From an uncultured bacterium (GTDB taxonomy: Bacteria; UBA8481), in contig CAZCME010000004.1 of the NCBI GenBank assembly GCA_964499705.1, positions 1-64,000 on the forward strand: a stretch of DNA of 64,000 nucleotides, written 5' to 3'. A program made the position numbers and the translations under genes. Shown piece after piece: positions 5,137 to 63,998 of this stretch. Below the pieces are notes generated by a model. That model was not told the origin of the DNA. It was given only the letters and a program-made list of their open reading frames with translations, and did no database searches. The first letter of the stretch is position 1; each line of letters starts with the position of its first letter.

Positions 5137-5166
5137 GCGACAAAGAGGTGCCGCGGGAATCCGCGG

Positions 5167-6401: not shown

Positions 6402-7305
6402 GGCTCTTCACCAGAAGAACGTAATCGCCCATTCCCTGTATGGATATCCAGTAAAAGCCGGACGTGGGCGCCGGAACGACAATGCGCTTCATAGGCTCGT
6501 CGCCCATGCGCGTCATATCGAGACCCGGCTTCTCCGAAGCGATCCGCAGGGCGAAATTTCCGGAGAGCACGACTTCAAAGGAAGCGCGGTTCGGGGCGTA
6601 CACGCGGAAGGTCTTGACCGCGGGCGGCTGCGAGGGAGCCAGGTCCCCCTGGGCGATATCTCCGAAGATGAGCGTGGCCTTGTCATCCGCAAAGGGAACG
6701 AATCGCTTCGCAGGCGGCATGGTCACAATTTGGGTTTCCTGGATGACGGGCGGCGCAGGCTTTGAAACCTCAGGAGCGGGTTCCGACACGGGTGCCTGTT
6801 CGACGGGTTTCGGCATGACCGGCTCGGGAGGTTTCGCGGGAACAACCGGTTCCGGTTGCGTCATCTCTCTCGGCACGACAACGGGCACGACGGGCATCAC
6901 GGGCTCGATCCGAAGAGGAACCTCCATGAGGCTCGGGTCCGTCACAATCTCCCCGAGCCCGTAGTTCGTCGTCACAACGACTCGTTCCTTTGATCGCGTG
7001 CGGAGCCGGATCTCGACGGAACCGGAAGTATAGATCGGGATGACGCACTCCGCCCGTCCCGCTTCGGGCATGATCTGGGACCAGACTTCATCGGTGCCTG
7101 CCTGAAGTTCCAGCAGGCCCGGCGCTTCCGCATGAATCCAAAGAAGCGACGGGCCTGCGACTTCGATCGACAATTTGATCTCGCCGGGTGAAACGATGGA
7201 GAGGCGCGTACCCGCAGGATAAGACTCCGCACCGGCGCTCACGGTCATAAACAGGAGCAAGCACAGGACGAGTGAAAAATGTCGATGCGAGACGGAGGAC
7301 GGCAT
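6394..7305 (-). CDS. Secreted hypothetical protein with a Pro/Val-rich linker
   Basis: Signal peptide ending SAGA-E; central PV/EP-rich region; overlaps the next gene by 8 nt. Confidence 0.6.
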   Translation of the reverse strand: MPSSVSHRHFSLVLCLLLFMTVSAGAESYPAGTRLSIVSPGEIKLSIEVAGPSLLWIHAEAPGLLELQAGTDEVWSQIMPEAGRAECVIPIYTSGSVEIRLRTRSKERVVVTTNYGLGEIVTDPSLMEVPLRIEPVMPVVPVVVPREMTQPEPVVPAKPPEPVMPKPVEQAPVSEPAPEVSKPAPPVIQETQIVTMPPAKRFVPFADDKATLIFGDIAQGDLAPSQPPAVKTFRVYAPNRASFEVVLSGNFALRIASEKPGLDMTRMGDEPMKRIVVPAPTSGFYWISIQGMGDYVLLVKSLD

Positions 7306-7420
7306 GGAAGGAATAGTAGTCAGCCTCAGGCGACGTGTCTATATCGACGCCTCGAAAAAATGGGTGGAAGTTCGCGCAAGCGCCTGCGGGGGCAAGGGGG
7401 CCCGAATCCGGCAGGCTCGT

Positions 7421-8272
7421 TCAGCGGCGGGCGAGATATTTCTGAGGATTGATGCGTGTGCCGTGCCGGATGATCTCCAGGTGAACGTGCGGGCCGGTGG
7501 AATGGCCGGAAGACCCGACCTTGGCGATCACGGAGCCTTTTCTGACTTTGGCTCCGGCCTTGACGAGATTGGCGGAATTGTGCGCATACCGTGAAACCAC
7601 GCCGTCGGGATGCCGGATATCCACGCACCAGCCATAGCCTCCGCGCCGGCCGCTGAACGCGATAACACCCTCCCTCAGGGCGTGGATCGGTGAGCCGAGT
7701 GGTGCCGCAAGGTCCATCCCGCAATGGAATCGTTTGCGGCCCGTAATGGGATGCCGGCGGAATCCGAAACGTGAAGTCAGCCTGCCTGCCACGGGCCATC
7801 CTCGGACGGATCGCGCGGCTTGACCCGCGCGGCGGCTCCTGGTTCTTTCCCGGACGGACGCCCTGCGAACCGCCACGGTATTCGGCACTTCGCGAGATCG
7901 CGCTGTCCGGGCCGTCGCATTATTCCTGGCTGTCCCACGCGCGGGTGAGGCGGAACTTCGGCTTCCGGAGTTTGTCCTGCCGGAGGATCGTGGAGCATTC
8001 TCCGCCTGCGACAGGACTCGGCCTTCCTCTTCATCCAGGTCGTCTCCCTCGTTCCCCTGGAAGACGATCGAACCCAGCTTACCGATATCTGAACCCTTGA
8101 TCCCGGGAAAGGTCGATGCGAATTCCGGGAGAGCAAAGGACGCGTCGAGGGCGTCTTCGTCGGACAGACGGGTGGCGGACAAGGCCTGGCGGACGCCGGT
8201 CAGGAGCAGAAATGTGGCTCCCATGAAAATGATTGCCCGCCCCAGGCTGTGTCTGTCCCATTCCTGATTCAA
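7421..8272 (-). CDS. M23-family metallopeptidase (peptidoglycan endopeptidase)
   Basis: WPV.G.LTSRFG.R.HP, HCGMD (HxxxD), YAHN, GHSTGPHVHLE (HxH); TTG start with SD GAGGT. Confidence 0.9.
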   Translation of the reverse strand: MNQEWDRHSLGRAIIFMGATFLLLTGVRQALSATRLSDEDALDASFALPEFASTFPGIKGSDIGKLGSIVFQGNEGDDLDEEEGRVLSQAENAPRSSGRTNSGSRSSASPARGTARNNATARTARSREVPNTVAVRRASVRERTRSRRAGQAARSVRGWPVAGRLTSRFGFRRHPITGRKRFHCGMDLAAPLGSPIHALREGVIAFSGRRGGYGWCVDIRHPDGVVSRYAHNSANLVKAGAKVRKGSVIAKVGSSGHSTGPHVHLEIIRHGTRINPQKYLARR

Positions 8273-8399
8273 CCGCGACCTCTGTCGTTTAGAGAGTTTG
8301 TGAAGCCTTGAGCAGCTTTGATTTTTATCGGAAGGACGGAGGGCGAACTGGAGGGGGAAAGTTTGGGAGGCCTTGTGATAAGTTCAGCAGTGACTCGCT

Positions 8400-8681
8400 C
8401 TACCTTGCGGAAGAAGAATTGTATGCCCTGGCAAAGAGGACGGCGCTGTCGGGATTAACCATGACTTCCTCCACGGCCTGTCGAAATTCCGTTTCGTTGT
8501 ATCCTTTCGCGGACAGAATCTTTGTCGCCTCATCCGGCGATACGAATTCCACTTCGGCGGCGACCCGGCCCAGGGAAGCCGCATCCATGGGAGGTTTATC
8601 GGAACAACCCGGGATCAATGAAATCGCCATTAACGCCGCGATCGGAAATGACGGTGACTTTGTCCAGGTGATTGAATTCAT
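8400..8681 (-). CDS. Small putative lipoprotein
   Basis: Hydrophobic leader with IPG-C lipobox; ATGA overlap with the upstream gene. Confidence 0.55.
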   Translation of the reverse strand: MNSITWTKSPSFPIAALMAISLIPGCSDKPPMDAASLGRVAAEVEFVSPDEATKILSAKGYNETEFRQAVEEVMVNPDSAVLFARAYNSSSAR

Positions 8682-9250
8682 GGCCTTCTCCTCGAAACGG
8701 AATGAGGATTTGCTCGTGGCCCACGCGGCGCCAGATCCGACCGGCCGCGATGCTCCTCGTCCTGTCTTACTTCCTCGGAACGCTCATGGCCTCGCGCCGG
8801 ATGATCAGTCTTGTCTTTCGGACCTCGGCCATGGTCATCGTGAATGGTGATCGCAACGATCGAGCCGTCCGCGTTTCGAACCTGGCCTGGAATTCCCCGC
8901 CGGGCCTGCTCCGCATGAATGGCGTCGGCCAGGGCGCGTCCTCTCAATCCACGGGCATGAGCATCCTGCACGAAGGATCCCATTCCCCTTCCAGTGCGCT
9001 CCGTTCTGTCACCAGCCAGCGCCTTGAACAAGCTGCCAATGACCGTGTTCGATACTCCGTCCCGCTTCATGCTCCTGACCGCGTCTCTGGCGACATCGGG
9101 ATCGATCTCTCCCATGCTGACAGCCGTGCCGATGGCCGCCGCCCCGTGGATGGCGGCCAAAGTCTCCGGATCCAGAGCGTATGCGGATGTGGTGGACAGA
9201 CATAATACGGCCAGCGAAACCGTAGCGAAAAATGTGAGTTGTCGATTCAC
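8678..9250 (-). CDS. Secreted hypothetical protein with a His/Arg/Asp-rich tail
   Basis: GTG 9250 preceded by AGGAGGT; signal peptide ending SAYA-L. Confidence 0.6.
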   Translation of the reverse strand: MNRQLTFFATVSLAVLCLSTTSAYALDPETLAAIHGAAAIGTAVSMGEIDPDVARDAVRSMKRDGVSNTVIGSLFKALAGDRTERTGRGMGSFVQDAHARGLRGRALADAIHAEQARRGIPGQVRNADGSIVAITIHDDHGRGPKDKTDHPARGHERSEEVRQDEEHRGRSDLAPRGPRANPHSVSRRRP

Positions 9251-9277
9251 GATGCATCCACCTCCTGACAATCGATG

Positions 9278-9294
9278 TTGCATCGGTCATGCCA
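9278..9294 (-). promoter_or_regulatory. Candidate sigma54 promoter
   Basis: Minus strand TGGCATG-ACCG-ATGCAA with exact GG-N10-GC spacing, just upstream of the SD of the 9250 gene. Confidence 0.6.
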
Positions 9295-9439
9295 ATCTGG
9301 AAAGAAGCAGCGACTCGATCAGCTACGGCTACGACCAGGACAAGTGCGGATGAACCGGAATTGTTCGTTCCCGAAGTGATTTCAAAGCGGGATGGACATC
9401 GGTGAACGCGAAAGGAAACCCTGCTTTTTGAATCCTGCG

Positions 9440-9772
9440 TTACACCCCGAAGGAGCTCCCGCATCCACAGGTCTTTGTGGCGTTGGGATTATTGAAGACG
9501 AAGCCCTTGCCCATCAGGCCGTCCTGGAAATCGAGCGTCATGCCCGACAGATACAGATAGGACTTGGGATCCACGAAGACGCGGACTCCGCCGGATTCGA
9601 AGACCTGGTCCTTCTCGGTGGGAGCCTCGGCCAGGCTGAGAGAGTAGGAGAATCCGGAGCATCCGCCGCCCTTGACGGCGACACGGAGCCCGGAACTGGC
9701 CGACGGAAGCTTTTCCTGCTCCATCAATTTCTGAACCTGGCTCGCCGCTTTTTCACTGACTGCAATGCTCAT
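9440..9772 (-). CDS. iscA: A-type Fe-S cluster carrier (IscA/ErpA/HesB family)
   Basis: GGGCSGFSY, FVFNNPNATKTCGCGSSF. Confidence 0.95.
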   Translation of the reverse strand: MSIAVSEKAASQVQKLMEQEKLPSASSGLRVAVKGGGCSGFSYSLSLAEAPTEKDQVFESGGVRVFVDPKSYLYLSGMTLDFQDGLMGKGFVFNNPNATKTCGCGSSFGV

Positions 9773-9814
9773 CTCTCTTCACTCCTCTTGGAAATTCATA
9801 ACCATTATACCAGA

Positions 9815-10993
9815 TCAGACCGCGGCGCGAAATTTTTCATAGTGCGGCGAGAGATCTCTGAGGCGCGCCACTTCCTCCGTGACACGACGAATGACGTAGT
9901 CGATTTCCTCGTCCGATGTGGCGCGTCCTAGACCGAAGCGGATGGATGCATGAACCATTTCATCGGGCAGGCCGATCGCCTTCAGCACGTGCGACGGCTT
10001 GAGAGAAGCGGACGTGCAGGCCGAACCTGTCGACAAAGCGATATCGTGCAGGCTGATGAGGAGCGCCTCCCCTTCGGCATGGGCAAACGACATGTTCAGA
10101 TTGCCGGGAAGGCGCCGGTCCGGATGTCCGTTCAGACGGGCGTGTGGAATCCGGCGCATCAGTTCGGACCGGAGGTGTTCCCTCATGCGAACAAGCCGGG
10201 CGGATTCGGATTCGAGCTCGGACAGGGCGATCCGGAGGGCGGCTCCCATGCCCGCGATCGCGGGCACATTGAGCGTTCCGGATCTCAGGCCTCGCTCATG
10301 GCCGCCGCCATGCATGAGCGGTTCGATCTTGTCCGCGAATTCCTTCCGGATCGTGCAGAAACCGGCTCCCTTGGGGCCGTAGAATTTATGCGCGGACGCG
10401 GAAAGCGAGTCGATCTTCAGAGCTTCGGCATCGATCGGGATTTTCCCCACCGCCTGGGCCGCGTCCGTATGAAAAAATATGCCTCTCTCGCGGCAGATGC
10501 TGCCGAAGACGGCGATGTCATTGATCGTGCCGATCTCGTTGTTGGCCATGATGACGGAAACAAGCAGCGTTTCGGGGCGGATCGCCTCCTGAAGTTTATC
10601 CGGATCGAGACGGCCGTCGGGATCGACAGGGAGAATCGTAACCGAGAATCCGCGCGCTTCGAGAGCGCACAGGGTATCAAGAACCGCGCGGTGTTCGACG
10701 GCGGTCGCGATGAGATGAGCCGGCGCGCCATGACGTGCCGCGATGCCTTTCAAGACGAGGTTCACGGCTTCCGTTGCGCCTGAAGTGAAGACGACTTCTT
10801 TTTCGTGCACGTTGACCGCGCGGGCGCAGATCTCGCGCGCTTCTTCCACGGCCGCCTTCGCCTCCCAGCCGAAGCTGTGATTTCTCGATGCGGGATTGCC
10901 GTAGATCCGGCTGAAATAAGGAAGCATGGTCTCGAGGACGCGGGAATCGACGGGCGTTGTGGAGTGATGATCGAGGAAGATCGGGAGCTTCAG
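9815..10993 (-). CDS. iscS: Cysteine desulfurase; apparent CTG start at 10993
   Basis: In-frame (L)KLPIFLDHHSTTPVD lies upstream of the ORF-track ATG; FTSGATE, HTDAAQ, SAHKFYGPKG, STGSAC. Confidence 0.95.
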   Translation of the reverse strand: MKLPIFLDHHSTTPVDSRVLETMLPYFSRIYGNPASRNHSFGWEAKAAVEEAREICARAVNVHEKEVVFTSGATEAVNLVLKGIAARHGAPAHLIATAVEHRAVLDTLCALEARGFSVTILPVDPDGRLDPDKLQEAIRPETLLVSVIMANNEIGTINDIAVFGSICRERGIFFHTDAAQAVGKIPIDAEALKIDSLSASAHKFYGPKGAGFCTIRKEFADKIEPLMHGGGHERGLRSGTLNVPAIAGMGAALRIALSELESESARLVRMREHLRSELMRRIPHARLNGHPDRRLPGNLNMSFAHAEGEALLISLHDIALSTGSACTSASLKPSHVLKAIGLPDEMVHASIRFGLGRATSDEEIDYVIRRVTEEVARLRDLSPHYEKFRAAV

Positions 10994-53313: not shown

Positions 53314-55647
53314 TCAGCGGCCCGGCGCGAACGGAGACGGAACGGCCGGAGCCTGGCCGGCGACGATCTTCATCTGGCACGCGTGCGAGGCTTCGATGAA
53401 GAGCTGCGCTTCCTCCACGCGCTGGTGCGCGTTTTCGGGCGTCGGATCGATATCGCCCCGTTCATGCGCCTGGAAGAGGAACTGCGCGAAGCGGCCGCCC
53501 GCGAACCGGTCGAAGAAGATCTGGGTATCGTAGAAATCCCGGCGAAAAATCTCGACGACGCGAGCCGGGTCGGCGGGCGAATCGATGTTGCGGATCCGGT
53601 TCAGCGCGTGCGCCGCGGAGATCATCGCCTTGCAGGCCGTCCGAATCGCCGCCGCGGAATGCCGCTTGATTTCCTCGGTCGAGGCGTCCTCCGAAATCCC
53701 ATCGAGCTCGATCTGCGCTTCGAAGACCTCACGTTCGGCTTCCGCGAGATCAAAATCGAACATGCTGACGACCTCGCCCGCGCATTCTCCCTTGCCCATG
53801 TCACCTATGGAAAATTCACGCGAGTCGTGCCAATCGACGAAAAACGACGGGTCGGCGTCATGAGCCGGAACCATCGTCAGGTCGTCCAGCATCGCTTTCG
53901 CTTCCTTCTTCCCGAGCCGGCCCATGAAGACGCGGAAGTTCTCGCCGCTCTGCCGCTCCCGCATGTACCGTTCGATCAATCGATCGACCACCTCGGGAAT
54001 TCGCTTCGAAGGAAGAGCTCCGATCGACAGGCCGTAATGCGCGGCGTTTTCGCTCCACTCCCCGCCCAGCAGCAACTGGAAATGAGGAACCGTGAACCCG
54101 CCGATGGTGCGGCTCGATCCGTAGAAACCAATGTCGGCGAGATGGTGCTGGCCGCAGGAATTGAAGCAACCGCTCACCTTGATCCGCATGTTCCGGACGG
54201 CCTCGTCGTACTGCAGTTCTCTCGTCATCAGTTTCTCCCGCAGCACGGCGGCCAGGCCGCGGGACGAGGCGATGCCGAGCTTGCAGGTGTCGGTTCCCGG
54301 GCAGGCCGTCACGTCCACGATCGATTCGGCGCCGGGCTCGTTCAGGCCGATGCCTTCCAGGTCGCGATACAGGGCCGGGAGATCGGATTCGCGAATCCAG
54401 CGCAGCAGCAGGTTCTGCTCCACGGTCGTCCGGATCGTGTCGTGTAGATATTTGCGGACGATGTCGGAAAGCTTTCGCATCTGGCTTGAAGAGATGTCGC
54501 CAAGCGGAAGCGTGACCGTGACCGCGACATATCCCGGCTGGCGCTGGGGCTTGGCGTTCGTGGAGCACCACTTTTCGAAGGGCGAAATCCGGACAGTAGA
54601 GACCGGATGGCCGGCGACCACGGGAGGTTCATCGAGGCCACGGAGAGGATGCTCGACATCCTGTTCCGCCTCTCCGAGCCAGTCCGTCCATTTCGGATCC
54701 GACGGGAGCGCAGCGCGTTCTTCGATGACGAGGCGCTTGAATTCGCCGATGCCGAGCTTTTTCACGAGAAACTTGAGGCGAGCCGCGGCGCGATTCTTCT
54801 TTTCTCCGAGGCGCGCGAAGACGCGCGCCATCGCCTGAGCGACCGGAAGGAGTTCCTCGACAGGAAGAAATTCGTCGAAGAGCTTGGCCTGGTAGGGAAC
54901 GGCGCCGAGCCCTCCGCCGACATAGAATTCGAATCCTCGCTTCTCCACGCCGTCGACGATTCGCTTGCGGGCGATGCAGCCCATGTCGTGCATCATCGCC
55001 AGGCCGCAGGCATGGCCCGCGCATCCGGAAAAGGCGATCTTGAATTTCCGGCCGAAGTCCTGTGTGTCCTTGTGGCCAAGGAGAAATCGCGCGCAAGCCT
55101 TGGCATACGGCGTCACATCGAACGTTTCGTCGCGGCAGACGCCCGCGATCGGGCATGCCGTCACATTGCGGACGGTGTTGCCGCAGGCCTCGCGCGTCGT
55201 GATCCCGGCGGCGGCCAACCGACGGAAGAGATCGGGCGTGTCGTCGATGTGGACGAAGTGAAACTGGAAATCCTGGCGCGTCGTGATGTGGAGGATCGAA
55301 TCGGAATATTCCTCCGCGAGATCCGCGAGCGTCTCCATCTGCGCCGCCGACAGGCCGCCGAAGGGAATCTTGATCCGCTGCATCCCCGGAGCATCCCAGA
55401 ACGTTTCAGGGCCCTTGGTCAGATCGCCGGATGCGTAGGAAATGCGGCGGGAGCGGACACCGTCGTGCCTCTGGCCGTTGTCGTACCGCTGGCCATACGC
55501 GCCGCGGCGCAGCCTTGTCTCCGCGAAGAGCTTCTCGTCAAACTTGCCCTGCTTGCGGAGCGCGATCTGCTGCTCGAAGACTTCGATCTCGCGCGCAAGA
55601 TCCTCGGGCATTCGGCCGGCGAGGCAGGTTTTCCAGTCGGTTTTCAT
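53314..55647 (-). CDS. Siroheme nitrite/sulfite reductase with a C-terminal extension
   Basis: RIKIPFG, HITTRQ, RKFKIAFSGC, TTVEQN, ACPGTDTC...SGCFNSCGQH. Confidence 0.9.
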   Translation of the reverse strand: MKTDWKTCLAGRMPEDLAREIEVFEQQIALRKQGKFDEKLFAETRLRRGAYGQRYDNGQRHDGVRSRRISYASGDLTKGPETFWDAPGMQRIKIPFGGLSAAQMETLADLAEEYSDSILHITTRQDFQFHFVHIDDTPDLFRRLAAAGITTREACGNTVRNVTACPIAGVCRDETFDVTPYAKACARFLLGHKDTQDFGRKFKIAFSGCAGHACGLAMMHDMGCIARKRIVDGVEKRGFEFYVGGGLGAVPYQAKLFDEFLPVEELLPVAQAMARVFARLGEKKNRAAARLKFLVKKLGIGEFKRLVIEERAALPSDPKWTDWLGEAEQDVEHPLRGLDEPPVVAGHPVSTVRISPFEKWCSTNAKPQRQPGYVAVTVTLPLGDISSSQMRKLSDIVRKYLHDTIRTTVEQNLLLRWIRESDLPALYRDLEGIGLNEPGAESIVDVTACPGTDTCKLGIASSRGLAAVLREKLMTRELQYDEAVRNMRIKVSGCFNSCGQHHLADIGFYGSSRTIGGFTVPHFQLLLGGEWSENAAHYGLSIGALPSKRIPEVVDRLIERYMRERQSGENFRVFMGRLGKKEAKAMLDDLTMVPAHDADPSFFVDWHDSREFSIGDMGKGECAGEVVSMFDFDLAEAEREVFEAQIELDGISEDASTEEIKRHSAAAIRTACKAMISAAHALNRIRNIDSPADPARVVEIFRRDFYDTQIFFDRFAGGRFAQFLFQAHERGDIDPTPENAHQRVEEAQLFIEASHACQMKIVAGQAPAVPSPFAPGR

Positions 55648-55667
55648 GGCGATAAATTTTATCGCCA
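55647..55667. promoter_or_regulatory. 21-bp palindrome overlapping the -10 box and start codon of the reductase
   Basis: TGGCGATAAA-T-TTTATCGCCA with perfect 10-bp arms. Confidence 0.6.
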
Positions 55668-55716
55668 AGTCGCTTCAAGCGCCAAGAAATTCGAGACTCC
55701 GCTCGCTTTCCTCGCG

Positions 55717-56388
55717 TTACCTCGCTCGCCTTTCTCCGAAGATCGCCGTGCCGATCCGCACCATCGTCGCGCCGTGTCCGATCGCGGATTCAAAATCCGA
55801 CGACATGCCCATGGACAGTTCTCGAAGCTCCAGCAGATCGCGGATCTCCCGAAGCTTCCTGAACCACGGAGTGGGATCCTGTCCTTGAGGAGGCACGGCC
55901 ATCAGTCCCGCGACATAAACCAAAGTCTTGTTCATCGCGGCGGAGATCAATCTCAAGATATCGGGCGGCAGGACACCTCCCTTCTGCGGTTCCTCCGCGA
56001 GGTTTACCTCAATGAGGCATTCCACGGGCACGCGCGCGCGCTTGTCGATCTCCTCCAGCTCGACGACGCGCGATACGGACAGGAGAGACGAGGAAGCTTT
56101 CAGGATGTCGCGTATCTTCCTGGTCTGGAGCCGGCCCTGGTAATGCCATCGGGGACGTAGCCCGGAAAGAGCACTCGCCGACGTAAAATATTCCGCCTTG
56201 GTTTCCAGTTCCTGCGCGTAATTCTCGCCGAAATCCGAGACGCCCGCGGCCAGCGCCTCCTGGATCGCCTCAGGCCCGTGCCCCTTCGACACGGCGATCA
56301 GCCTGATCTCCGCCGGATCCCGGCCGGCTCGTTGAGCGGCAGCCGCGATCCGGCCGCGGACTTCCGCTATATTCCCGGCTATGGACAA
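55717..56388 (-). CDS. yggS: PLP homeostasis protein
   Basis: LIAVSKG, FGENYAQE, WHYQGRLQ, QKGG, GLM, LSMGMSSD, VRIGTAIFG; likely TTG start. Confidence 0.93.
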   Translation of the reverse strand: MSIAGNIAEVRGRIAAAAQRAGRDPAEIRLIAVSKGHGPEAIQEALAAGVSDFGENYAQELETKAEYFTSASALSGLRPRWHYQGRLQTRKIRDILKASSSLLSVSRVVELEEIDKRARVPVECLIEVNLAEEPQKGGVLPPDILRLISAAMNKTLVYVAGLMAVPPQGQDPTPWFRKLREIRDLLELRELSMGMSSDFESAIGHGATMVRIGTAIFGERRAR

Positions 56389-56395
56389 GCGCGCG

Positions 56396-57094
56396 TCAGG
56401 CTTTGAACGGCTCGCCGCATCGAGGAGCGGGATTCGTGAAGCCGAGCGTTTCGCGCGTGCGAACAAGCTTCTCGACATTCTCGGGCGAGATCGGGTTCGG
56501 TCCTCCGAGGCTGCGTGCCAGGAGAATGATGCGCGCGGCATGATCGATCGACTCCATCCGCCAATGCGCCTCCCGGATATTCCTTCCCAACGTCAACGCT
56601 CCGTGATTCTCCAGGAGAATCGCATCGGAGCCGGTCACGTATTTTGCGACGGAGTCGGGAACCTCCTGTGTCGAAGGCGTTGCGTACGGAGCCAGAGGAA
56701 CGCTGCCGAGGGCGACGATAATCTCGGGAATGATGCAGTCGGTCATCCCGATCCCGGCGACGGCGAAGGCGGTCGCATGCGGCGGATGCGCATGGCAGAC
56801 GGCGAAGACATCCTCCCGCTGCCGGTACGCGACGAGGTGCATCTTGATTTCGGACGAAGGTTTCCATTTCGATCGAGAGAGCATCGTTCCGTCGAGAGAA
56901 ATCTCGACGAGATGCTCGTCGGTCATACCGCCCTTCGGAACTCCCGAGACCGTCGCGAGGATTCTACCGTTGGGGAGCCGCACGGAAAGATTTCCGTCGG
57001 TTCCGGAGATGAGACCGCGCTCCCAGAGCTTCCGGCCGACGTCGATGATGTCGCGCCGGGCGGCGGCGGAACCGCGCAGGCCGTGGACGGTCAT
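56396..57094 (-). CDS. Class II aldolase/adducin-family protein
   Basis: TDGNLS, PSSEIKMH, VCHAHP, LLENHG. Confidence 0.9.
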   Translation of the reverse strand: MTVHGLRGSAAARRDIIDVGRKLWERGLISGTDGNLSVRLPNGRILATVSGVPKGGMTDEHLVEISLDGTMLSRSKWKPSSEIKMHLVAYRQREDVFAVCHAHPPHATAFAVAGIGMTDCIIPEIIVALGSVPLAPYATPSTQEVPDSVAKYVTGSDAILLENHGALTLGRNIREAHWRMESIDHAARIILLARSLGGPNPISPENVEKLVRTRETLGFTNPAPRCGEPFKA

Positions 57095-58125
57095 CGGAAT
57101 TCCTTCAACTCCTCCGTCTTCATCTGCGCGAGGAGTTCGCGGACATTCTGTTCCATGCCGCGCTTCACAACGAGAACGACATCGCCGTTCCTGATGATGG
57201 CCAGATCCTCCACGCCGACCGCCGCGACCAGGCCCGCATCCGAATCGATGATGAGCCCTTTCGTCTCGAAGCCGACAAAGCGGCCCCGGACGGAATTACC
57301 GGACGAATCCTTACCGTACACGCGCGCCATCGCGCCCCAGTCTCCGACGTCGTCCCACGGGAAATCACCCCTGACGACGAACGATTCGGAACAATGTTCG
57401 AGTATGCCATGGTCCACCGAAATGGAAGGAGCCGCCGTGAAGATCGTCGACTTTCCACTCTGCTTCATCTCCGCCAGAACCTTCGCGAGGTCGGGAATGT
57501 AGCGCGCGACAAGATCGAGGTAGACACCGGCTCGGACGACGAAGATTCCTCCGTTCCAGAGCGCGCCTTCCTCGATGAGGCGCGCGGCGCGCTGCGGCGG
57601 CGGCTTCTCCACGAAGGACGCGATGCGGAAACCGGGGCCGTCGAGCGGGTCGCCGGGACGAATATAGCCGTAGCCGGTCTCCGGGCGCGTCGGAGCGATG
57701 CCGATGCAGACAATGCCGTTCTTTCTAGCCGCGATGGACGCGGCGGATGAAATAACTCCGCGGAATTTTTCCGGATCGGGGATGTGATGATCCGAAGGGA
57801 GAGCGACAATGATGTCGTCGGGAGCGCAGGCGATGGCGGCCAGTCCCAAAGCGGGAGCGGTCGACCGGCCGGAGGGTTCCAGGATGAGCTCCATCTCCGC
57901 GGCGCCGTATTCCGCCGCGACGGCGCGCGCCTGCTCGGCCAGATCCGCGCCGGCTACCGCAATCGTCCGCGCCGCCAGCGGCCTGATCCGCTCCAGGGTG
58001 TCTATCAGCATCGGCTTTTCGGATGCGATGGGGAGGAACTGCTTCGGCATGCCGCGCCGCGAGCGCGGCCAGAATCGCTCGCCTTTACCGCCGATGAGGA
58101 GAACTCCCACGATCTTCGTTGTCAT
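57091..58125 (-). CDS. manC: Mannose-1-phosphate guanylyltransferase
   Basis: GGKGERFWP.SR...PKQFL, EPSGRSTAPA, PSDH, ETGYGYI, FVEKP, WNGGIF, WDDVGDW. Confidence 0.92.
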   Translation of the reverse strand: MTTKIVGVLLIGGKGERFWPRSRRGMPKQFLPIASEKPMLIDTLERIRPLAARTIAVAGADLAEQARAVAAEYGAAEMELILEPSGRSTAPALGLAAIACAPDDIIVALPSDHHIPDPEKFRGVISSAASIAARKNGIVCIGIAPTRPETGYGYIRPGDPLDGPGFRIASFVEKPPPQRAARLIEEGALWNGGIFVVRAGVYLDLVARYIPDLAKVLAEMKQSGKSTIFTAAPSISVDHGILEHCSESFVVRGDFPWDDVGDWGAMARVYGKDSSGNSVRGRFVGFETKGLIIDSDAGLVAAVGVEDLAIIRNGDVVLVVKRGMEQNVRELLAQMKTEELKEFR

Positions 58126-58207
58126 GGAAGCGAGTCTACTCTCGTAAAGAATGCCGATCAATGACGGGGCGAATACGGGGACAGTATACTATTTTCCGTG
58201 AAAAATT

Positions 58208-58942
58208 TCACGGAAAATAGTATACTGTCCCCGTATTATCCAGGAGCGCGGGGTCGTCGGTGAAGATGGCGGCGGCGCCACGATCGATGAGGAGCTCGGC
58301 TTCGGCGGGATCGTTGATGGTCCAGATGAAGACGGGGACGCATCCGTCGCCGGTCAGTTCCGGAAAGAAAAGTTCCGGAGGGAGATGCAGCGCGCGAGGT
58401 TTGATTCTGCGCGCCGCGTCCAGAAGCATCGCAGGGCTGACCGTGCCGCGCCGGGCGGAGAAAAGAAGGCCGACGGGGAACCCTTCACGCACGACGGTTT
58501 CCATGAGACCCATGTTGAAGGATGAAAACCAGATGTCCGTCTTTTTCTCGCCGCGGGCGATCTCACGGGCCCTCGTCCATGATTCCGGGGCCTTGATCTC
58601 CACATTCAGAGCGCACCGGCCGTCGATGAATTCCAACACCTGCGAAAGCGAGGGAACGCCGACGCGATTCACATCCTCGAAGCGCGCTTCCGCGACCGGA
58701 CCATGGCCCTGGCCGGTCCTGTCCAGAGTCGCATCGTGGAGCAGAACGACTTCGCCGTCGGCCGTTAGCCGGATATCGATTTCAACTCCATCGGCTCCCG
58801 CGTCGATCGCGATGCCGATGGATTCGATCGTGTTCTCCAGAGCACGAGCCATCGCTCCTCGATGACCGAATATCTTCACGTTCCCGCGCCGCTCCCGCAT
58901 TGCCCGGGTTCCCGTCGCTCGCGAATTCGCGCCGTTCCTCAT
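58208..58942 (-). CDS. Glycerophosphodiester phosphodiesterase (start 58942, 58900 or 58879)
   Basis: FGHRGA, ENT, EIDIRLT.DG, HD.TL.RT, NVEIK, WTIND, IFTD. Confidence 0.9.
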   Translation of the reverse strand: MRNGANSRATGTRAMRERRGNVKIFGHRGAMARALENTIESIGIAIDAGADGVEIDIRLTADGEVVLLHDATLDRTGQGHGPVAEARFEDVNRVGVPSLSQVLEFIDGRCALNVEIKAPESWTRAREIARGEKKTDIWFSSFNMGLMETVVREGFPVGLLFSARRGTVSPAMLLDAARRIKPRALHLPPELFFPELTGDGCVPVFIWTINDPAEAELLIDRGAAAIFTDDPALLDNTGTVYYFP

Positions 58943-59946
58943 GATTCTCTCGTGCGCGCGACGGCCCATCTCGCGAATATCTCGTTGCGCCGCGCCGCGG
59001 GCATCGACGGATTGGACCGGTGGCGTTCCGGACGCAGAAGCATCACGGATTCCGCCCGCGCCGCCAGGTAGGCCGCTCCCCAGGCAACCGCATTTTGTTC
59101 CGCGACACGAATGACGGGCGCGGCCATCATGTCGGCGATCACTCCGGTCAGTTCATCGCTCCGCGCATAGGATCCGACCGCGTACAGTTCCTCGACGACA
59201 GCCTCCCCCGCAAGATCCGCGAGCGCCGCGCGAACCTCCAGGCCGACCGCTTCCAGAGCGGCGCGCGCCACCTGCGGCCTTCGCACTCCGTCCTTGAGCC
59301 CCATGATCGCGAACCCATCGTCCCTGGAGGAAGCGATTCCCTCCTCGCCCGCAACCGGCTGACGGGACCGTCGGGCAAAACGCACTCCGGCGGAATCCTT
59401 GCCGATCCGAGCAAGGTCGCGGATGTCATCAAACGATTCCACCAGGCCGAGCCGGCTGATGAGCACGCGAAGCGGTTCCAGGATGTCCGGAGTCATGCGA
59501 TGATGCATCACGCGGCGCTTTCCCTTCTCATCCGTCACCTCGATACTCTCCCCTTCTTCACATTGTTCCGCGTAAAGCCTCACCGGGTCATCGAGCATGA
59601 GCCAGGCCTTGTTTCTGCCACCGGCGAAAATCGGGAGGAGAGATTCGATCTCCGAGCCGGAGAAGGAGATTTTCAATCCCCCGATCAGCGGCAGGTGCGG
59701 ATCGAAGCGGCCATCACGGAGAAGCTGATCCGCAAGAACGAAGTCCTGCGGAGCGAATGCCACTCCCGCGCACCGGCAGTGTTCGCGATCACCCAGGCTC
59801 TCCAGTGCTCCCATGACGGAACGCGCCAGCACTTCGGCTCGGATGGCGCCGACGGGCAATTCGAATGAAGAACGGGCCACGACGCCGCGCTCCTCATGCA
59901 CCAGCACGGCGGTGACGGAATGACCTATGGCTAGCCCGCAGATCAT
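58939..59946 (-). CDS. Divergent, shortened FGGY-family (glycerol-kinase-like) protein
   Basis: DSAGV.F, I.GL...R..VARAALEAV, L.AVG..A.SD...IAD....V, AWGAAYLA; canonical N-terminal motif is degenerate. Confidence 0.55.
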   Translation of the reverse strand: MICGLAIGHSVTAVLVHEERGVVARSSFELPVGAIRAEVLARSVMGALESLGDREHCRCAGVAFAPQDFVLADQLLRDGRFDPHLPLIGGLKISFSGSEIESLLPIFAGGRNKAWLMLDDPVRLYAEQCEEGESIEVTDEKGKRRVMHHRMTPDILEPLRVLISRLGLVESFDDIRDLARIGKDSAGVRFARRSRQPVAGEEGIASSRDDGFAIMGLKDGVRRPQVARAALEAVGLEVRAALADLAGEAVVEELYAVGSYARSDELTGVIADMMAAPVIRVAEQNAVAWGAAYLAARAESVMLLRPERHRSNPSMPAARRNEIFARWAVARTRES

Positions 59947-60015
59947 CTGGAGAAAGAGACGGGGGTGTTGCTCCACAGGCGATATGTCTTCACACCGTTC
60001 ACCTTGCAATGCTCA

Positions 60016-60645
60016 TCATAGGAGGACACGCGGAGATCGTAAATCGCTCCTTCGAGCGAACGCCTCCTTCCAGTACATCCTGCCCGTGCGAAGGCAATGA
60101 TCCTCCCATTCCGACCTGATCTCCAGGTTCCATCCTTCTGAAAAGAGGAATGCCGGATGAGAGGCGATCGTCTCAAGAATGCCTCCGTGCAGACCCTCGT
60201 GATCGGTCATGATGTATATCCTCGAACCTGGCGGCATGAGCAGAGCCAGTTCATCGAGGAAGCTCGTGGAAAGCACTCTCCTCTTATGGTGACGTTTTTT
60301 GGGCCAGGGATCGGGAAAGAAAAGATAGGCGGCGTCGATGCGGCGGTTCGGCGTGAAATCGCGGATACGGCCGGCGATATTTCCCCAGAGGACATGAGCA
60401 TTCCGGAGCTGCGCGGCGCCGATCTTTTCCAGCAATTCCTCCACGAGAGGTTTTCGAACCTCGGTGCCGAGAATATTCATGCCCGGGCGGGTCCTCGCGT
60501 GTTCCAGGAGAAATCCGCCCTTCGACGCGCCCCATTCGATCGCCAGCGGCAGCGCCGGATCCGCGAAGACTTCATTCCATGCCGGTGGTTCCAGTCCTGG
60601 AAAAGTGCGCAGGGGGTTGGCGTGCGTGCGGATCCGTTTCTTCAT
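60016..60645 (-). CDS. trmB: tRNA (guanine-N7) methyltransferase
   Basis: RIRTHANPL, IEWGASKG, FPDPWPKKRHHKRR, TD, SEWE. Confidence 0.93.
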   Translation of the reverse strand: MKKRIRTHANPLRTFPGLEPPAWNEVFADPALPLAIEWGASKGGFLLEHARTRPGMNILGTEVRKPLVEELLEKIGAAQLRNAHVLWGNIAGRIRDFTPNRRIDAAYLFFPDPWPKKRHHKRRVLSTSFLDELALLMPPGSRIYIMTDHEGLHGGILETIASHPAFLFSEGWNLEIRSEWEDHCLRTGRMYWKEAFARRSDLRSPRVLL

Positions 60646-60665
60646 GAGTGTGTTATCATAGCAGG

Positions 60666-61076
60666 ATGTTCCGCCTTCGTGTCATTCTCTGGACGCTCGC
60701 CGCGCCGCTCGCGCTGCGCGGCGGAATAGCGCGCGCCTTCGACTGGTATCGTCCGCGTTCCGCCGGATCCGTTCACGACGCCCCTGAAAGGATCGTGGAG
60801 GCCGCGGACAAGATCCTCCTCTACCGTATCCGCGGCAGGCTTGTTTTCCGCACGCGCTGCTTGAAACGCACACTTGTCCTTTATCGCCTTCTCAGGGAGA
60901 GCGGCCACCCGGCAGTCGCGCATATCGGGCTCGGCCGGGGCGAGCACGGTTTCGACGGCCACGCCTGGCTGACTCTTCATGGCCGACGGATCGAGGATCC
61001 GACCTTCACTCCGCAGCGCGACTTCACGCCATTCCTGGAAATCGATGAGACCTCGAAGGAATTACGCGGCGCGTGA
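60666..61076 (+). CDS. Lasso-peptide B2-type leader peptidase (transglutaminase-like Cys protease)
   Basis: RCLKRTLVL..LL...G......IG.......GHAWL..G: Cys nucleophile plus HAW. Confidence 0.85.
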   Translation: MFRLRVILWTLAAPLALRGGIARAFDWYRPRSAGSVHDAPERIVEAADKILLYRIRGRLVFRTRCLKRTLVLYRLLRESGHPAVAHIGLGRGEHGFDGHAWLTLHGRRIEDPTFTPQRDFTPFLEIDETSKELRGA

Positions 61077-61999
61077 GCGAACATCTCTCGACCGACTTCC
61101 TGATCGCCGGTGTCCGGACGCGTATCTCATCCGACAGGAATGATCCTCCGTATTCGGCCATGATCGAGGATTTGAGCGCGATGCGAACGACGGATCCCGG
61201 CGAAGCCGAATGCGAACTCATGCTCCATCCGCGCGGCTGGGACGAGCCGTCTCCCCTGAAACTCCCCGCTGACGCAAAGCTTCTACGAAGCGGCGGGCGC
61301 AAAGTGTTCGAACATGACGGCGCATATTTCATCGATTTCCATGAAGAGGCTTTTTTTCAGCTTCATGCGGCACGCATGGAGGGTGTCTGCTATTGGGGGC
61401 CCGAACTCGATCCGATGTTCTGGACGGAAATCTGCCTGCCGTATGTTCTTGCGCTGCTCTTGCGCCGGCGCGGATTGTTTCTCCTGCATGCGGGCGGCGC
61501 CGTATCTCCGGATGGAACCGCGATGCTCTTCACGGGTCGAAGCGGGGCGGGAAAATCCACGACCGCGTTCCGGCTGGCCGAAGCCGGATGGACCTATCTC
61601 GGAGACGACATGGTCTTCTACGATGCGCATTACCGGATCCATGCCTTCCCGAAGCTCGCGGCGGCGACCGAATGGACGGTCGAGCGTTTAAAGCTGCTCC
61701 CGCGCGTGCTCAGAATTCGCCCCACGGGAAAAAGAGTCATCCGCCCATGGCTCGCGCCGGCCATGCCCCCGGAAAAATTCCGCATCTTCGCGCCGATTCC
61801 CGCAACTTTCGCAAAAAATTCCATCGCTCCCCTGGATCTGGATTCCGCGGTGGAAATTCTGTCCGGCCAGGCGCAGTTCTGCCACACGGATCATATCGTC
61901 GGCGGTCCCGCGCCCGATCTTGTCCCGCTGGCGGCGCGTACCCTCGAGATCAGGATCGGCGATCTCGCATCGCTTCCTGATTTTCTCGCGGCAATCTGA
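61073..61999 (+). CDS. HPr-kinase-like P-loop protein (putative peptide kinase)
   Basis: LHAGGA, Walker A GRSGAGKST, YLGDD; GTGA overlap with the B2 gene. Confidence 0.8.
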   Translation: MSEHLSTDFLIAGVRTRISSDRNDPPYSAMIEDLSAMRTTDPGEAECELMLHPRGWDEPSPLKLPADAKLLRSGGRKVFEHDGAYFIDFHEEAFFQLHAARMEGVCYWGPELDPMFWTEICLPYVLALLLRRRGLFLLHAGGAVSPDGTAMLFTGRSGAGKSTTAFRLAEAGWTYLGDDMVFYDAHYRIHAFPKLAAATEWTVERLKLLPRVLRIRPTGKRVIRPWLAPAMPPEKFRIFAPIPATFAKNSIAPLDLDSAVEILSGQAQFCHTDHIVGGPAPDLVPLAARTLEIRIGDLASLPDFLAAI

Positions 62000-62004
62000 C
62001 CGGA

Positions 62005-62931
62005 TCAGTCCGCTCCGAAAACCCGCATCAGCCGTTCCCGGGTCTGCGGAAACTGAAAAAACGTCGATCGTCGGCGGGAGCCCAGAGTCCAGGTCCACAT
62101 TCCTCGCGGAACCGCGGCATCATGTTCGATCGAGAAAGGAAATGCGTCTCCGGGAGAAACCGGCATGGAATCGACGGGAAAGAGCGTCCGGAACCAATGC
62201 TGTCCGGACCACGCTTCATCGGGTTTCTCCTCCAGGACAACGCCGGGCGAAAGCCGGGCCGACCACCAGGCAAGAACAGCGTTGCATTCGCCGGATCGAT
62301 CGGCCACCAGCGTGCAGGATCCGGAAAACCGGTCGCCCGTCGCCGTCATGAGATCGATCTCCGGCAGCGAGGACCCGGGGCCGAGCAGCATCGACGGCTT
62401 GAGATAATCGGGAAACGTGTAATGCTCCATGCATTCCGCCAGCGCGGAAAAATCGAAACCGTACCGCTTCTCTCGCCAGAAAGCCGCTGCCTTGGCGACC
62501 GGTACCGAATTCACGAGCGCCACGCGAAGTTGGACGGCCGACGGAATAACGATTCCTTCCTGCTTCAAGAATCGGCGCGCCGATTCCATGACGGAGATGA
62601 TTTTCTCGTCCAGGAGCATATTGCCGATCATTTCACAGACGATCGTATCGACGGGTTCGATGGCGGACGGATCCAGCTTCCTGATGTCGTCGTGAATGAA
62701 CCGGACATTCGATCCGTTTTTCCTCGCGACGGCGCGCGCATAATCGATCATGTCGCCCGCCTCCACGGCGACCACGTCGGCGCCAAGACGCTCCGCCGCC
62801 AGGGCGAGAATGCCGGTGCCCGTACCCACGTCGAGAACGCGGCTGCCGGGCCGCACGCGTTGCTTCAGCGCGGCGAGAAAGGCGTTCGTTCGCACCTCGT
62901 CGCTCAGCAGGGCGGCATGATATTCAAGCAT
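62005..62931 (-). CDS. PRMT-fold SAM-dependent methyltransferase
   Basis: HAALLSDEVRT, VLDVGTGTGIL, double-E loop CEMIGNMLLDE, FLKQEG.VIP, FW...YGFDFS arm, QHW loop. Confidence 0.85.
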   Translation of the reverse strand: MLEYHAALLSDEVRTNAFLAALKQRVRPGSRVLDVGTGTGILALAAERLGADVVAVEAGDMIDYARAVARKNGSNVRFIHDDIRKLDPSAIEPVDTIVCEMIGNMLLDEKIISVMESARRFLKQEGIVIPSAVQLRVALVNSVPVAKAAAFWREKRYGFDFSALAECMEHYTFPDYLKPSMLLGPGSSLPEIDLMTATGDRFSGSCTLVADRSGECNAVLAWWSARLSPGVVLEEKPDEAWSGQHWFRTLFPVDSMPVSPGDAFPFSIEHDAAVPRGMWTWTLGSRRRSTFFQFPQTRERLMRVFGAD

Positions 62932-62949
62932 GAGGATGAAGAAAGATGA

Positions 62950-63147
62950 TCAGGGCATAAGCCAGGGAGGGATGTCCATCGGCGCCGAAGCGCCTCCGCA
63001 TCGCCCACTCTGGCAATTGATCGAGCTCCGCGTTCCGCTCGGCTGCTGATACGTCTCGATCCCCGTGTAGGGAAGCTTGTACCGGGTCAAATGCGGCTTG
63101 AGATAGGCCTTGCCCTTGTTCTCGTGGCAGCTCTCCGTCTTTTTCAT
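62950..63147 (-). CDS. Putative RiPP precursor peptide (65 aa)
   Basis: SD GAGGT, ATGA overlap with the rSAM stop, YLKPHL (YxxPxL) leader motif, Ser/Gly/Cys/Arg-containing core. Confidence 0.7.
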   Translation of the reverse strand: MKKTESCHENKGKAYLKPHLTRYKLPYTGIETYQQPSGTRSSINCQSGRCGGASAPMDIPPWLMP

Positions 63148-63998
63148 GCGGCACCTCGGATGAAGACTCCGTTTATGATGTCGTCGCGACCGAGCCAAGC
63201 GGCGGTCACTTCGCAATGATGCGGAGCGGGGCGGTCATAATGCCCCGTCTCCTGAACAAACTGACCCATGCAACGGTAGCGGCACGAGGAAAGCATCGAG
63301 CACGATTTGCACGTGGAGATCTCCGTGCCTTTCTGCATCCGGATTTCATTCAACCTCCGCGAATTTCTCCAGACGTGCCGGAACGGAGTGTGCCGGATAT
63401 TGCCGACCGATTCGGGAACCTGCGAGCAGGGATACAAGTCCCCCAGCGGACCCACCGCGAACCTGCTCCACCCCATGTTGCACATCTCCGGATGATCCTC
63501 GTCGATGCAGGATGAAAATTCCGGGCGGCCCGTCCATTCCGTATAGCGACTCTCGCACTCCCGGATCTCGGCGGGCGTCAGGCGGTCCGCGAGAAACCCG
63601 TCGTTGCCGGAAACGAAACGGGGCGTGATGTGATACGATGGTGCGAAGATGGCGCCGGCTTCTTCGCAGAGCCTTCCCAGCTCCGTGATCGAATCGAAGT
63701 TCGTCCTCATAACCGACATCTTGACGATCGTCTTGATGCCGGCATCGACCGAAAGTTTCACCTTGGGAAACGCCCGCGCGAATGCTCCGGGCATCTTCAC
63801 GAACCGGTCATGCGATGCTCCCACTCCATGAATCGAAAAATGCAGCTCCTGGATTTCCTGCGACACGAGATATTCGATGTCCTCCTCGGAGAGGACCGTC
63901 CCGTTCTGAAATATCTCATACCGGAATCTCAAGCGGCAGGCTTCGCGGACAATCTCCCGCCAGCCGCGGTGAACAAGCGGTTCCCCGCCGCTGAACGT
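63144..63998 (-). CDS. Radical SAM/SPASM-domain protein, 5'-truncated by the window edge
   Basis: Frame open to the edge: FSGGEP, QNGT, SIHG...HD; SPASM C.MG.......G.LYPC...GN....F..VW...CKSC.....C...C. Confidence 0.9.
   Translation of the reverse strand, partial: TFSGGEPLVHRGWREIVREACRLRFRYEIFQNGTVLSEEDIEYLVSQEIQELHFSIHGVGASHDRFVKMPGAFARAFPKVKLSVDAGIKTIVKMSVMRTNFDSITELGRLCEEAGAIFAPSYHITPRFVSGNDGFLADRLTPAEIRECESRYTEWTGRPEFSSCIDEDHPEMCNMGWSRFAVGPLGDLYPCSQVPESVGNIRHTPFRHVWRNSRRLNEIRMQKGTEISTCKSCSMLSSCRYRCMGQFVQETGHYDRPAPHHCEVTAAWLGRDDIINGVFIRGAA

Follow-up and report, generated by a model that had tools for sequence, protein, structure and literature searches.

A conserved six-gene RiPP-type cluster that joins lasso-type leader-handling genes to a radical SAM/SPASM enzyme, a kinase-like protein and a PRMT-family methyltransferase

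The stretch analysed here (the window) comprises 64,000 nucleotides, positions 1-64000 of a 290-kb contig (G000:C4) in the 4.67-Mb genome of an uncultured bacterium (G000), and at its end it enters a six-gene cluster that is genuine, vertically conserved and of the type for peptides that ribosomes make and that are modified post-translationally (RiPP type). The cluster encodes a B2-type leader peptidase, a kinase-like protein of the ScmC family, a methyltransferase of the protein arginine methyltransferase (PRMT) family, a 65-residue precursor peptide, a radical S-adenosylmethionine (rSAM) enzyme with a SPASM domain and a discrete PqqD-type RiPP recognition element (RRE). Gene content, synteny, the conservation of catalytic motifs and a precursor family with a fixed register were observed directly, and together they are probably best read as a RiPP pathway in which lasso-type leader handling is combined with rSAM crosslinking, while kinase-like and PRMT-type enzymes replace the cyclase. 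The initial annotation, made from the window alone, had described five of these genes as two convergent units; the open reading frame (ORF) listing places all five where it had put them, with 5 bp (62000-62004) between the converging stop codons. The PqqD/RRE that it had anticipated in the flank is present directly upstream of the rSAM gene. The six genes are as follows.

60648-61076, plus strand: lasso B2-type cysteine peptidase of the transglutaminase-core (C96) kind, 142 residues from GTG 60648, or 136 residues from the in-frame ATG 60666
61073-61999, plus strand: ScmC-family kinase-like protein of the HprK/PEP carboxykinase (PEPCK) fold, 308 residues, with a 4-base overlap with the B2 gene
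62005-62931, minus strand: PRMT-family SAM-dependent methyltransferase, 308 residues
62950-63147, minus strand: precursor peptide ORF, 65 residues
63144-64205, minus strand (63144-63998 in the window): rSAM/SPASM enzyme, 353 residues
64202-64498, minus strand, outside the window: PqqD/RRE, 98 residues, with a 4-base overlap with the rSAM start

Family assignments held up for each of the enzymes. The peptidase matched NF033537 (lasso_biosyn_B2) at 52.7 bits (cut-off 33) and PF13471 at 50.8 bits (cut-off 26), the full-length rSAM protein matched PF04055 at 64.1 bits and PF13186 at 43.4 bits, the methyltransferase matched PrmA and PRMT_C (PF22528, 40.5 bits, cut-off 27), and the PqqD protein matched PF05402 at 64.1 bits (cut-off 23.4). 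The HprK-like assignment was borne out by a precomputed annotation (PF27840, ScmC) and by a predicted model with a PEPCK/HprK-type fold. The precursor ATG overlaps the rSAM stop codon as ATGA and the precursor ends 18 nt from the methyltransferase start, so this ORF occupies the entire space between the rSAM and methyltransferase genes. The flank past the window end was covered by examining 20 kb of the same contig (60001-80000), which held no cyclase, transporter or further rSAM gene.

The genes form one conserved unit, as the initial annotation had supposed, and they co-occur in other genomes. Orthologs of the rSAM enzyme, at 48-66% identity, were found in four other genomes of a small phylum-level lineage, making five of five with G000. 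In G003, G004 and G002, tblastn and ORF reading recovered the genes for PqqD, rSAM, peptide and methyltransferase convergent with those for the kinase-like protein and B2, and thus the six-gene set is syntenic in all three relatives whose contig spans both sides. The fourth relative (G001) keeps the PqqD-rSAM-peptide-methyltransferase side, its contig stopping 163 bases past the methyltransferase gene. Gene order is also kept in four of four metagenome contigs as far as their sequence reaches, one of which extends into the 3' part of the kinase-like gene. Cluster proteins are 40-73% identical to those of the relatives, and since this conservation holds across loci spanning 42-69% G+C, the genes are not chance ORFs. 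Beyond PqqD, neighbours differ in each genome (SecDF, a sulfatase, a GDSL lipase, cpYpsA, or a tRNA-Leu gene with a 573-residue ORF), which sets the cluster boundary on that side. The 16-kb loci from the relatives G003, G004 and G002 contained no Asn-synthetase-like cyclase, and the cluster flanks hold no conserved gene for a transporter, for immunity or for a regulator.

Wider searches place the cluster in a narrow group. A scan of 185,579 species, with one genome per species, yielded nine confirmed relatives of the rSAM enzyme, four at ≥48% identity and five at 21-29%, and no further close ortholog. In a collection of 5.8 billion proteins, the kinase-like protein had nine clusters at ≥48% identity before matches dropped to E 6e-8, the methyltransferase had 14 clusters at ≥41% identity with the next at 36%, and a word-indexed search with the precursor peptide returned nine clusters. 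The same longest-contig sizes recur among these hits (6579, 19176, 3671, 4163 and 6653), which suggests that the kinase-like, methyltransferase and peptide hits lie on shared contigs.

The predicted leader removal in this cluster has a lasso-type signature. The B2 orthologs match NF033537 in four of four cases, with Cys71, His105 and Asp117 invariant in all four, and the B2 protein is the single NF033537 match in the 4.67-Mb genome. In the part of a 2023 protease review that we consulted (PMC10885120), C96 (B2) peptidases are listed for lasso peptides only. The rSAM enzyme has no N-terminal RRE domain ahead of its CX3CX2C motif, which leaves the discrete PqqD as the cluster's sole RRE. Against the lasso-specific models, PqqD scored 47.2 bits on NF033536 (cut-off 80) and 28.6 bits on NF033530 (cut-off 70), below both. 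RRE-Finder found some 300 discrete lasso-type RREs beside rSAM enzymes, treated there as false positives for lasso peptides.

On the conservation of its sequence, the 65-residue ORF is a real precursor. It stands at the same position in all eight related loci with its amino acid sequence kept, a same-family ORF lying between the rSAM and methyltransferase genes in four of four relatives and four of four metagenome contigs. A full HMMER search of 1.84 billion representatives (E ≤0.001) returned 19 matches to the precursor profile, namely 14 peptide-sized proteins (56-75 residues), one 293-residue protein that ends in the peptide, and four long repeat proteins. These last four (P0040, P0042, P0043 and P0044; 464-722 residues) match the middle of the profile, at about 29-57, in eight to nine repeated stretches each, and may represent repeat proteins, precursors with several cores or low-complexity matches that arose by chance. 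The alignment used below holds 19 peptides, eight from the word-indexed search and 11 from HMMER; P0003 and the G001 peptide (near-duplicates of P0002) and the over-long P0035 are excluded, and positions are numbered by the window peptide.

Five residues (Y33, C45, C50, P60 and W62) are invariant in all 19 peptides. The other conserved columns are position 15 (Y/W, 19/19), position 18 (P, 18/19), position 20 (L/I/V, 19/19), position 22 (R in 16 and K in 3 of 19), position 23 (Y, 18/19), position 30 (I/V, 19/19, always 15 residues past Y/W15), position 34 (Q, 15/19; core position 3) and position 37 (S/T, 18/19). All 19 lack a C-terminal Ser, and 16 of them end in Pro or Gly. The leader covers approximately residues 1-31, with Y15-x-x-P18-x-L20 and with I30 at the predicted -2 position, and the putative core comprises residues 32-65 (about 34 residues; 33-40 across the family on the lasso register). 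Reading column 30 as -2 follows from the lasso leader register Tyr(-17)/Pro(-14)/Leu(-12), and Ile/Val(-2) is a rare variant of phosphorylated, kinase-bearing lasso clusters, both as given in the portion of PMC10368454 that we drew on. Core position 1 varies (T, S, E, F, M, A or Q), position 2 is the invariant Tyr, and no Asp or Glu is conserved at core positions 7-9 in the 19 peptides; with a variable first residue and no acidic partner conserved, no lasso ring would be expected.

The lasso-style leader proposed in the initial annotation was therefore upheld in part: the register and Ile/Val(-2) fit 19 of 19 peptides, but the [Y/W]xxP motif taken alone is not lasso-specific, since a partial view of PMC12710340 gives it as common to the RREs FusE, McjB, PqqD and StsC, from lasso, PQQ and sactipeptide pathways. 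Docking of PqqD with the precursor gave an ipSAE of 0.46 against 0.01 for the best control, with runs agreeing on ≥88% of contacts and a partner pLDDT of ≥50. Of the solved complexes, 58 of 80 reach the pass mark, as do 2 of 110 mismatched pairs, and scores ≤0.60 include just 7 of those 80 solved complexes but both mismatches. The modelled pose weakly suggests that the two may bind, and because solved RRE-leader complexes exist, the pass may reflect likeness to them and not binding.

The rSAM enzyme keeps its CX3CX2C motif (C31/C35/C38) and eight further Cys in its C-terminal half invariant in five of five orthologs. Its closest solved structure is the thioether-forming SkfB (E 4.1e-34), followed by PqqE (E 1.7e-18) and then by CteB, BlsE and SuiB. 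On the strength of the two invariant precursor Cys and the likeness to SkfB, thioether crosslinks donated by those Cys are the most likely product of this enzyme, and the invariant Tyr33 and Trp62 would be equally compatible with C-C or C-O crosslinks.

The kinase-like protein carries PF27840, which the Atlas names ScmC, as do 16 of its 19 search matches (precomputed annotation). All matches in local libraries were sub-threshold: PF07475 (Hpr_kinase_C) at 20.5 bits (cut-off 33.3), TIGR04352 at 28 (200) and TIGR04249 (ScmC) at 25.1 (125), the HprK_rel_A, HprK_rel_B and ScmC P-loop matches together spanning 25-28 bits (cut-offs 125-200). Its AlphaFold2 model (pLDDT 92.3) has PEP carboxykinases as its best folds in the PDB (E 6e-9, TM 0.53 by query), the fold class to which, we take it, HprK belongs. 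Across all 10 aligned sequences, a distant homolog (L023) included, there is no variation in His139, in the P-loop G155..G160-K161-x-T163 or in D178-D179; the His, the Walker A Lys and the Asp-Asp pair are presumably the residues with a catalytic role in HprK.

Known acceptor sites of such kinases do not transfer directly to this precursor family. According to the parts of the sources available to us, the acceptor of the paeninodin-type kinase is the C-terminal Ser (PMC8498205), BsfK phosphorylates core Ser3 (PMC10368454), and LppK phosphorylates core Ser3 and rejects Thr and Tyr at the site, the LPP phospho-Ser lying by consensus 18 residues after the Tyr of YxxP (PMC13381572). A C-terminal Ser was rejected as the target here on account of the Pro/Gly C-termini, and a Ser at core position 3 on account of the Gln found there in 15 of 19 peptides. 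The position 18 residues after Y15 is the invariant Tyr33, which by analogy is a lead for the phospho-site, weakened by the rejection of Tyr by LppK.

The methyltransferase is, to judge by its motifs, a true PRMT-family member. Over residues 5-266, it is matched best among solved structures by PRMT1 and further protein arginine N-methyltransferases (E 3.9e-26). In this alignment E100 and E109 fall on the double-E positions of PRMTs and a QHW (W246) falls on THW, which we take to correspond to the motifs named the double-E loop and the THW loop. H5, D11, R14, the G-x-G-x-G SAM motif, E100, E109 and W246 are invariant in seven of seven sequences, again including the distant L023 homolog. Arginine methylation of the product, as the initial annotation had proposed, is not supported: no core Arg is conserved, and Arg is missing altogether from 9 of the 19 cores (10 of 19 have some). 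The Arg-free peptides P0001, P0002 and P0004 are identical or almost identical to the peptides of G002, G001 and G003, where the methyltransferase gene was verified. A core Arg was thus rejected as the target for the family as a whole. A term search of a 2024 review of RiPP methyltransferases (PMC11285071) found neither PRMT nor guanidino methylation.

Two peptides of the family (P0039 and P0041) have an Arg/Gly-rich stretch from the second Cys to a C-terminal PPW, both ending PPWG. RG-rich stretches are typical PRMT substrates.

Remote relatives show that several of these genes also travel together outside the lineage. Among 12 loci found by rSAM similarity alone (21-33% identity), a ScmC/HprK-like gene adjoins the rSAM gene at six (L008, L010, L024, L026, L023 and a locus on contig C10 of the genome studied here), and it also lies beside the rSAM gene in two loci reached through the methyltransferase (L076 and L077); PqqD is present in three of these ScmC/HprK-bearing loci. 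Three genomes (G041, G166 and G067) carry a sister cassette in which precursor, HprK-like gene, one or two rSAM genes and a PRMT-like methyltransferase gene run in one direction. The sister loci are as follows.

L023 (G041), 2009-6351: sister cassette
L076, about 6400-10210: sister cassette
L077, about 300-6090: sister cassette

One of these genomes carries two rSAM genes. The rSAM/SPASM proteins are 25-29% and the methyltransferases (390-430 residues) 27-30% identical to those of the window cluster, and the double-E loop is kept. The sister precursors have [Y/W]xxPx[I/V] and two Cys, the first 18-19 residues after the aromatic residue, always have an Arg between the two Cys, and end in Ser, Ser and Thr. 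No PqqD or B2 was detected in the sister loci, where the cassette is followed by a 277-residue protein with a weak match to Peptidase_S24 (20.1 bits, cut-off 23.3). Since the kinase-like protein, the rSAM enzyme and the PRMT-like methyltransferase are shared with the sister cassette, they are linked in two distant lineages in which the peptidase differs. In the phylum of G041, PRMT-like genes (methyltransferase profile, E ≤1e-20) occur in 122 of 401 sampled genomes, and an rSAM gene lies within 1.5 kb at 3 of the 30 best PRMT-like loci, these being among the four top scorers. Many weaker PRMT-like matches in that phylum show one to two in-frame TGA codons in the matched stretch.

From these observations we infer a sequence of chemical steps, their order and a product. 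The discrete RRE would first bind the leader at [Y/W]xxPx[L/I/V] and would then present the peptide to the rSAM/SPASM enzyme, which would crosslink the core of about 34 residues, most likely through Cys-donated thioethers, with the invariant Tyr and Trp as alternative crosslink sites. The ScmC-like kinase could next phosphorylate a hydroxyl near the leader-core junction, either Tyr33 or the column-37 Ser/Thr. Activated by that same RRE, B2 would cleave after [I/V](-2)-x(-1), that is, between residues 31 and 32. The PRMT-family enzyme may methylate a target other than a conserved core Arg, such as leader Arg22, another nucleophile or a partner protein. With no cyclase and no ring-forming residue pattern, no macrolactam would be made.

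Several observations weigh against this pathway as proposed. No rSAM family model reached its cut-off (SkfB 46.7 of 300 bits, StsB 60.6 of 625, AlbA 47 of 850, PapB 36.8 of 340; ScmE TIGR04250 76.8 and ScmF TIGR04251 57.6, cut-off 400 for each). B2 stands beside none of the 14 remote rSAM loci profiled, most of which are only about 4 kb long. The known HprK-like RiPP kinases act on Ser, and here the matching register holds Tyr and Gln. The PRMT-type active site would lead one to expect an Arg substrate, but the core has no conserved Arg, and leader Arg22, the only broadly conserved Arg, is Lys in 3 of 19 peptides. We also caution that the synteny counts are not independent, because the close relatives all belong to one small lineage, and that the conserved adjacency may in part be inherited, because the TrmB gene likewise stays beside B2 in three of four genomes (G000, G003 and G002, not G004).

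An alternative interpretation is that the product is a peptide-derived cofactor or housekeeping molecule of the PQQ or mycofactocin kind, either a small piece cut out of the peptide or a modified peptide that stays inside the cell. It would account for the presence of the cluster in five of five lineage genomes despite the spread of G+C content, for a divergence of the cluster proteins (43-68% identity) similar to that of the housekeeping protein TrmB (50-61%), and for the lack of a conserved transporter, immunity or regulator gene in the flanks; PqqE is also the second-best solved relative of the rSAM enzyme, and a mycofactocin maturase is among its NCBIfam hits. We consider it unlikely all the same, because conserved residues run across the whole 34-residue core (Tyr2, the middle Cys pair and the terminal PxW) and are not confined to a single pair, a dedicated leader peptidase acting at a set junction points to a peptide product, the neighbourhood has no conserved redox enzyme or cofactor-dependent partner, and five related genomes are too few to argue essentiality. 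The five-of-five occurrence and the lack of an exporter gene may nevertheless leave room for a housekeeping role.

It is considerably less probable that two unrelated units, the PqqD/rSAM/peptide/methyltransferase operon and the B2 and kinase-like pair, simply lie side by side by inherited order. The units are convergent and not co-transcribed, the neighbouring TrmB gene points to a stable local order, and the profiled remote rSAM loci, short as most of them are, have no B2. Against this, a split B2 needs an RRE and the only adjacent one is the cluster PqqD, whose best NCBIfam matches are the lasso PqqD chaperones, although below cut-off (47 against 80 bits); the precursor has the exact B1/B2 register, with I/V at -2 throughout the family; and the locus has no further conserved small ORF or second substrate for B2, which is unique in the genome. 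Moreover, G004 lacks TrmB, yet its B2 and kinase-like genes still abut the methyltransferase gene, and the kinase-like gene lies inside the rSAM/methyltransferase operon of the sister cassette and beside rSAM in half of the remote loci found by rSAM similarity.

A canonical lasso peptide, with an Asn-synthetase-like paralog elsewhere in the genome as its cyclase and with rSAM, kinase and methyltransferase as tailoring enzymes, is very improbable. Genome-wide profile counts give G000 one B2, two PqqD above cut-off, two ScmC-like genes and six full-length PF00733 (Asn_synthase) genes, and the B1/B2 pair and the lasso-type leader would suit such a product. However, all six PF00733 paralogs are on other contigs and none on the 290-kb contig of the cluster, the 16-kb loci of the relatives hold no cyclase, and core position 1 is not a Gly/Ala/Ser/Cys position; a cyclase acting in trans was judged unlikely for a core without the residues for a ring. 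That the 65-residue ORF is no substrate, being spurious or bypassed by enzymes that act on another peptide or protein, is scarcely credible: no Pfam or NCBIfam family matches it, but its sequence is kept across loci of 42-69% G+C with five invariant columns in 19 peptides, its start is ATGA-coupled to the rSAM stop, it carries the RRE recognition motif and it recurs at the same position in all eight related loci.

Comparison with known systems places the six-gene pathway near several classes and clearly inside none. Kinase-bearing split-B1/B2 lasso clusters (the paeninodin type and bsf of Bradymonas sediminis; PMC10368454, seen in part) likewise have a discrete PqqD-type RRE, B2 and an HprK-like kinase, and share the leader residues Tyr/Trp(-17), Pro(-14), Leu/Ile/Val(-12) and the rare Ile/Val(-2). 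Unlike them, this cluster has no lasso cyclase, Gly1, Asp/Glu7-9, nucleotidyltransferase or ABC exporter and has Ser neither at core position 3 nor as its C-terminal residue, and it adds the rSAM/SPASM enzyme and the PRMT-family methyltransferase. The LPP clusters of Bacillota (Popov et al., Nat Commun 2026, PMC13381572), as far as the consulted sections describe them, are also cyclase-less with an RRE and an HprK-like kinase, and have a YxxPx[V/L] leader with a modified or invariant hydroxyl residue 18 after the Tyr, as here; they use a SipW-like signal peptidase, and the consulted main text mentions no rSAM enzyme or methyltransferase. Here the peptidase is B2, and a SipW-like peptidase, an NTP-transferase and an exporter of the MsbA kind are absent from the cluster and its conserved flanks.

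The SynChlorMet cassette contains ScmC, two rSAM/SPASM enzymes (ScmE and ScmF) and a PqqD homolog. This database-defined system (NCBIfam/TIGRFAMs) thus has a ScmC-family HprK-like protein, PqqD and rSAM/SPASM in common with the window cluster, which in contrast has one rSAM gene and not two, scores below the ScmC, ScmE and ScmF equivalog cut-offs, and adds B2, a PRMT-like methyltransferase and an identified precursor. More SynChlorMet-like than this cluster is the second locus of the same genome (G000:C10, about 63500-66500; L044 4545-7517), in which two tandem rSAM/SPASM genes lie beside a divergent ScmC/HprK-like gene. The best NCBIfam matches of these tandem rSAM proteins are ScmE and AhbD, far under cut-off, and the locus lies between a polysaccharide-export gene and argC.

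Sactipeptide, ranthipeptide and SKF systems (SkfB, AlbA, StsB/StsC and PapB) also combine rSAM/SPASM, an RRE and a Cys-containing core, and the StsC RRE has a W/Y/LxxP recognition motif in common with this leader, as reported in the portion of PMC12710340 that we used. The window cluster differs in scoring below their family models, in having only two Cys, and in its B2, kinase-like and PRMT-like partners, which are not theirs. On profile scores and motifs, the cluster falls outside lasso peptides, the SCM equivalogs and LPP, and its rSAM enzyme scores below cut-off on the models of all the named maturase families. We would class it as a variant among the RRE-dependent rSAM/SPASM RiPP pathways, in the loosely known but uncharacterised group of ScmC-type cassettes, from which its B2 peptidase, its PRMT-family enzyme and its well-defined precursor family distinguish it.

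No description of this six-gene combination was found in the literature on RiPPs, lasso peptides, rSAM enzymes, kinases and methyltransferases. Among the papers listed by the RiPP literature searches, none held methylarginine or dimethylarginine, none held arginine methyltransferase with rSAM/PqqD, and none named Hydrogenedentes/Hydrogenedentota; no paper naming SynChlorMet was found. The earlier remark that the combination was not recognised as a characterised class holds in that no characterised match was found, but the cluster is less isolated than it had seemed, given SynChlorMet and the partly characterised LPP pathways.

We tentatively raise the possibility of a distinct, undescribed RiPP class with a core of rSAM/SPASM crosslinker, ScmC-type kinase and PRMT-fold methyltransferase and with an interchangeable leader-removal module, the lasso B1/B2 pair here and an S24-like protein in the sister cassette. 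If this were true, it would be the first case in which an arginine methyltransferase fold of the eukaryotic type acts on a ribosomal peptide, and the presence of the cluster in every sampled genome of the lineage with no exporter or immunity gene would point to a role as a cofactor, signal or envelope component and not as an antibiotic. The six-gene pathway would show the lasso B1/B2 leader pair working outside lasso peptides, in an rSAM pathway, with a peptidase module that is apparently swappable while the modifying enzymes are kept, and it would extend the tailoring chemistry of RiPPs by a PRMT-fold enzyme. For the orphan ScmC/rSAM cassettes, it would also supply a defined family of precursors in which five residues are invariant and the cleavage site is predicted.

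In G000:C4 60001-67000, one promoter-like and four terminator-like sites were found, which does not exceed the shuffle means of 1.9 and 5.7, and an Rfam scan of the same stretch returned one tRNA only and no riboswitch. A tRNA-Leu(CAA) gene (64620-64705, plus strand) lies 121 bases upstream of the PqqD start, is overlapped by the last 44 or so bases of an opposite-strand 573-residue ORF, and is absent from this position in related loci. That ORF was rejected as a cluster member: G003, G004, G002 and G001 lack a homolog of it at this position, no family matches it, and the tRNA-Leu gene separates it from PqqD. An Atlas feature search (score 0.97, recognition value slightly below the tool's bar) linked it to 'hypothetical protein' clusters of 536-566 residues in Acidobacteriota and Bacteroidota. 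Past it lie nadA, an isocitrate/isopropylmalate dehydrogenase gene and glycosyltransferase genes. On the other flank (window 53314-60645), the genes resemble those of ordinary metabolism and, by reading of the ORFs, include a 784-residue sulfite/nitrite-reductase-like ORF and several sugar-nucleotide and phosphodiesterase-like ORFs. The remaining neighbours with coordinates are listed here.

64662-66383 of G000:C4, minus strand: 573-residue ORF, no Pfam or NCBIfam family
58939-60009: FGGY_C-domain protein (Pfam/NCBIfam)
60016-60645: TrmB, beside B2 (Pfam/NCBIfam)

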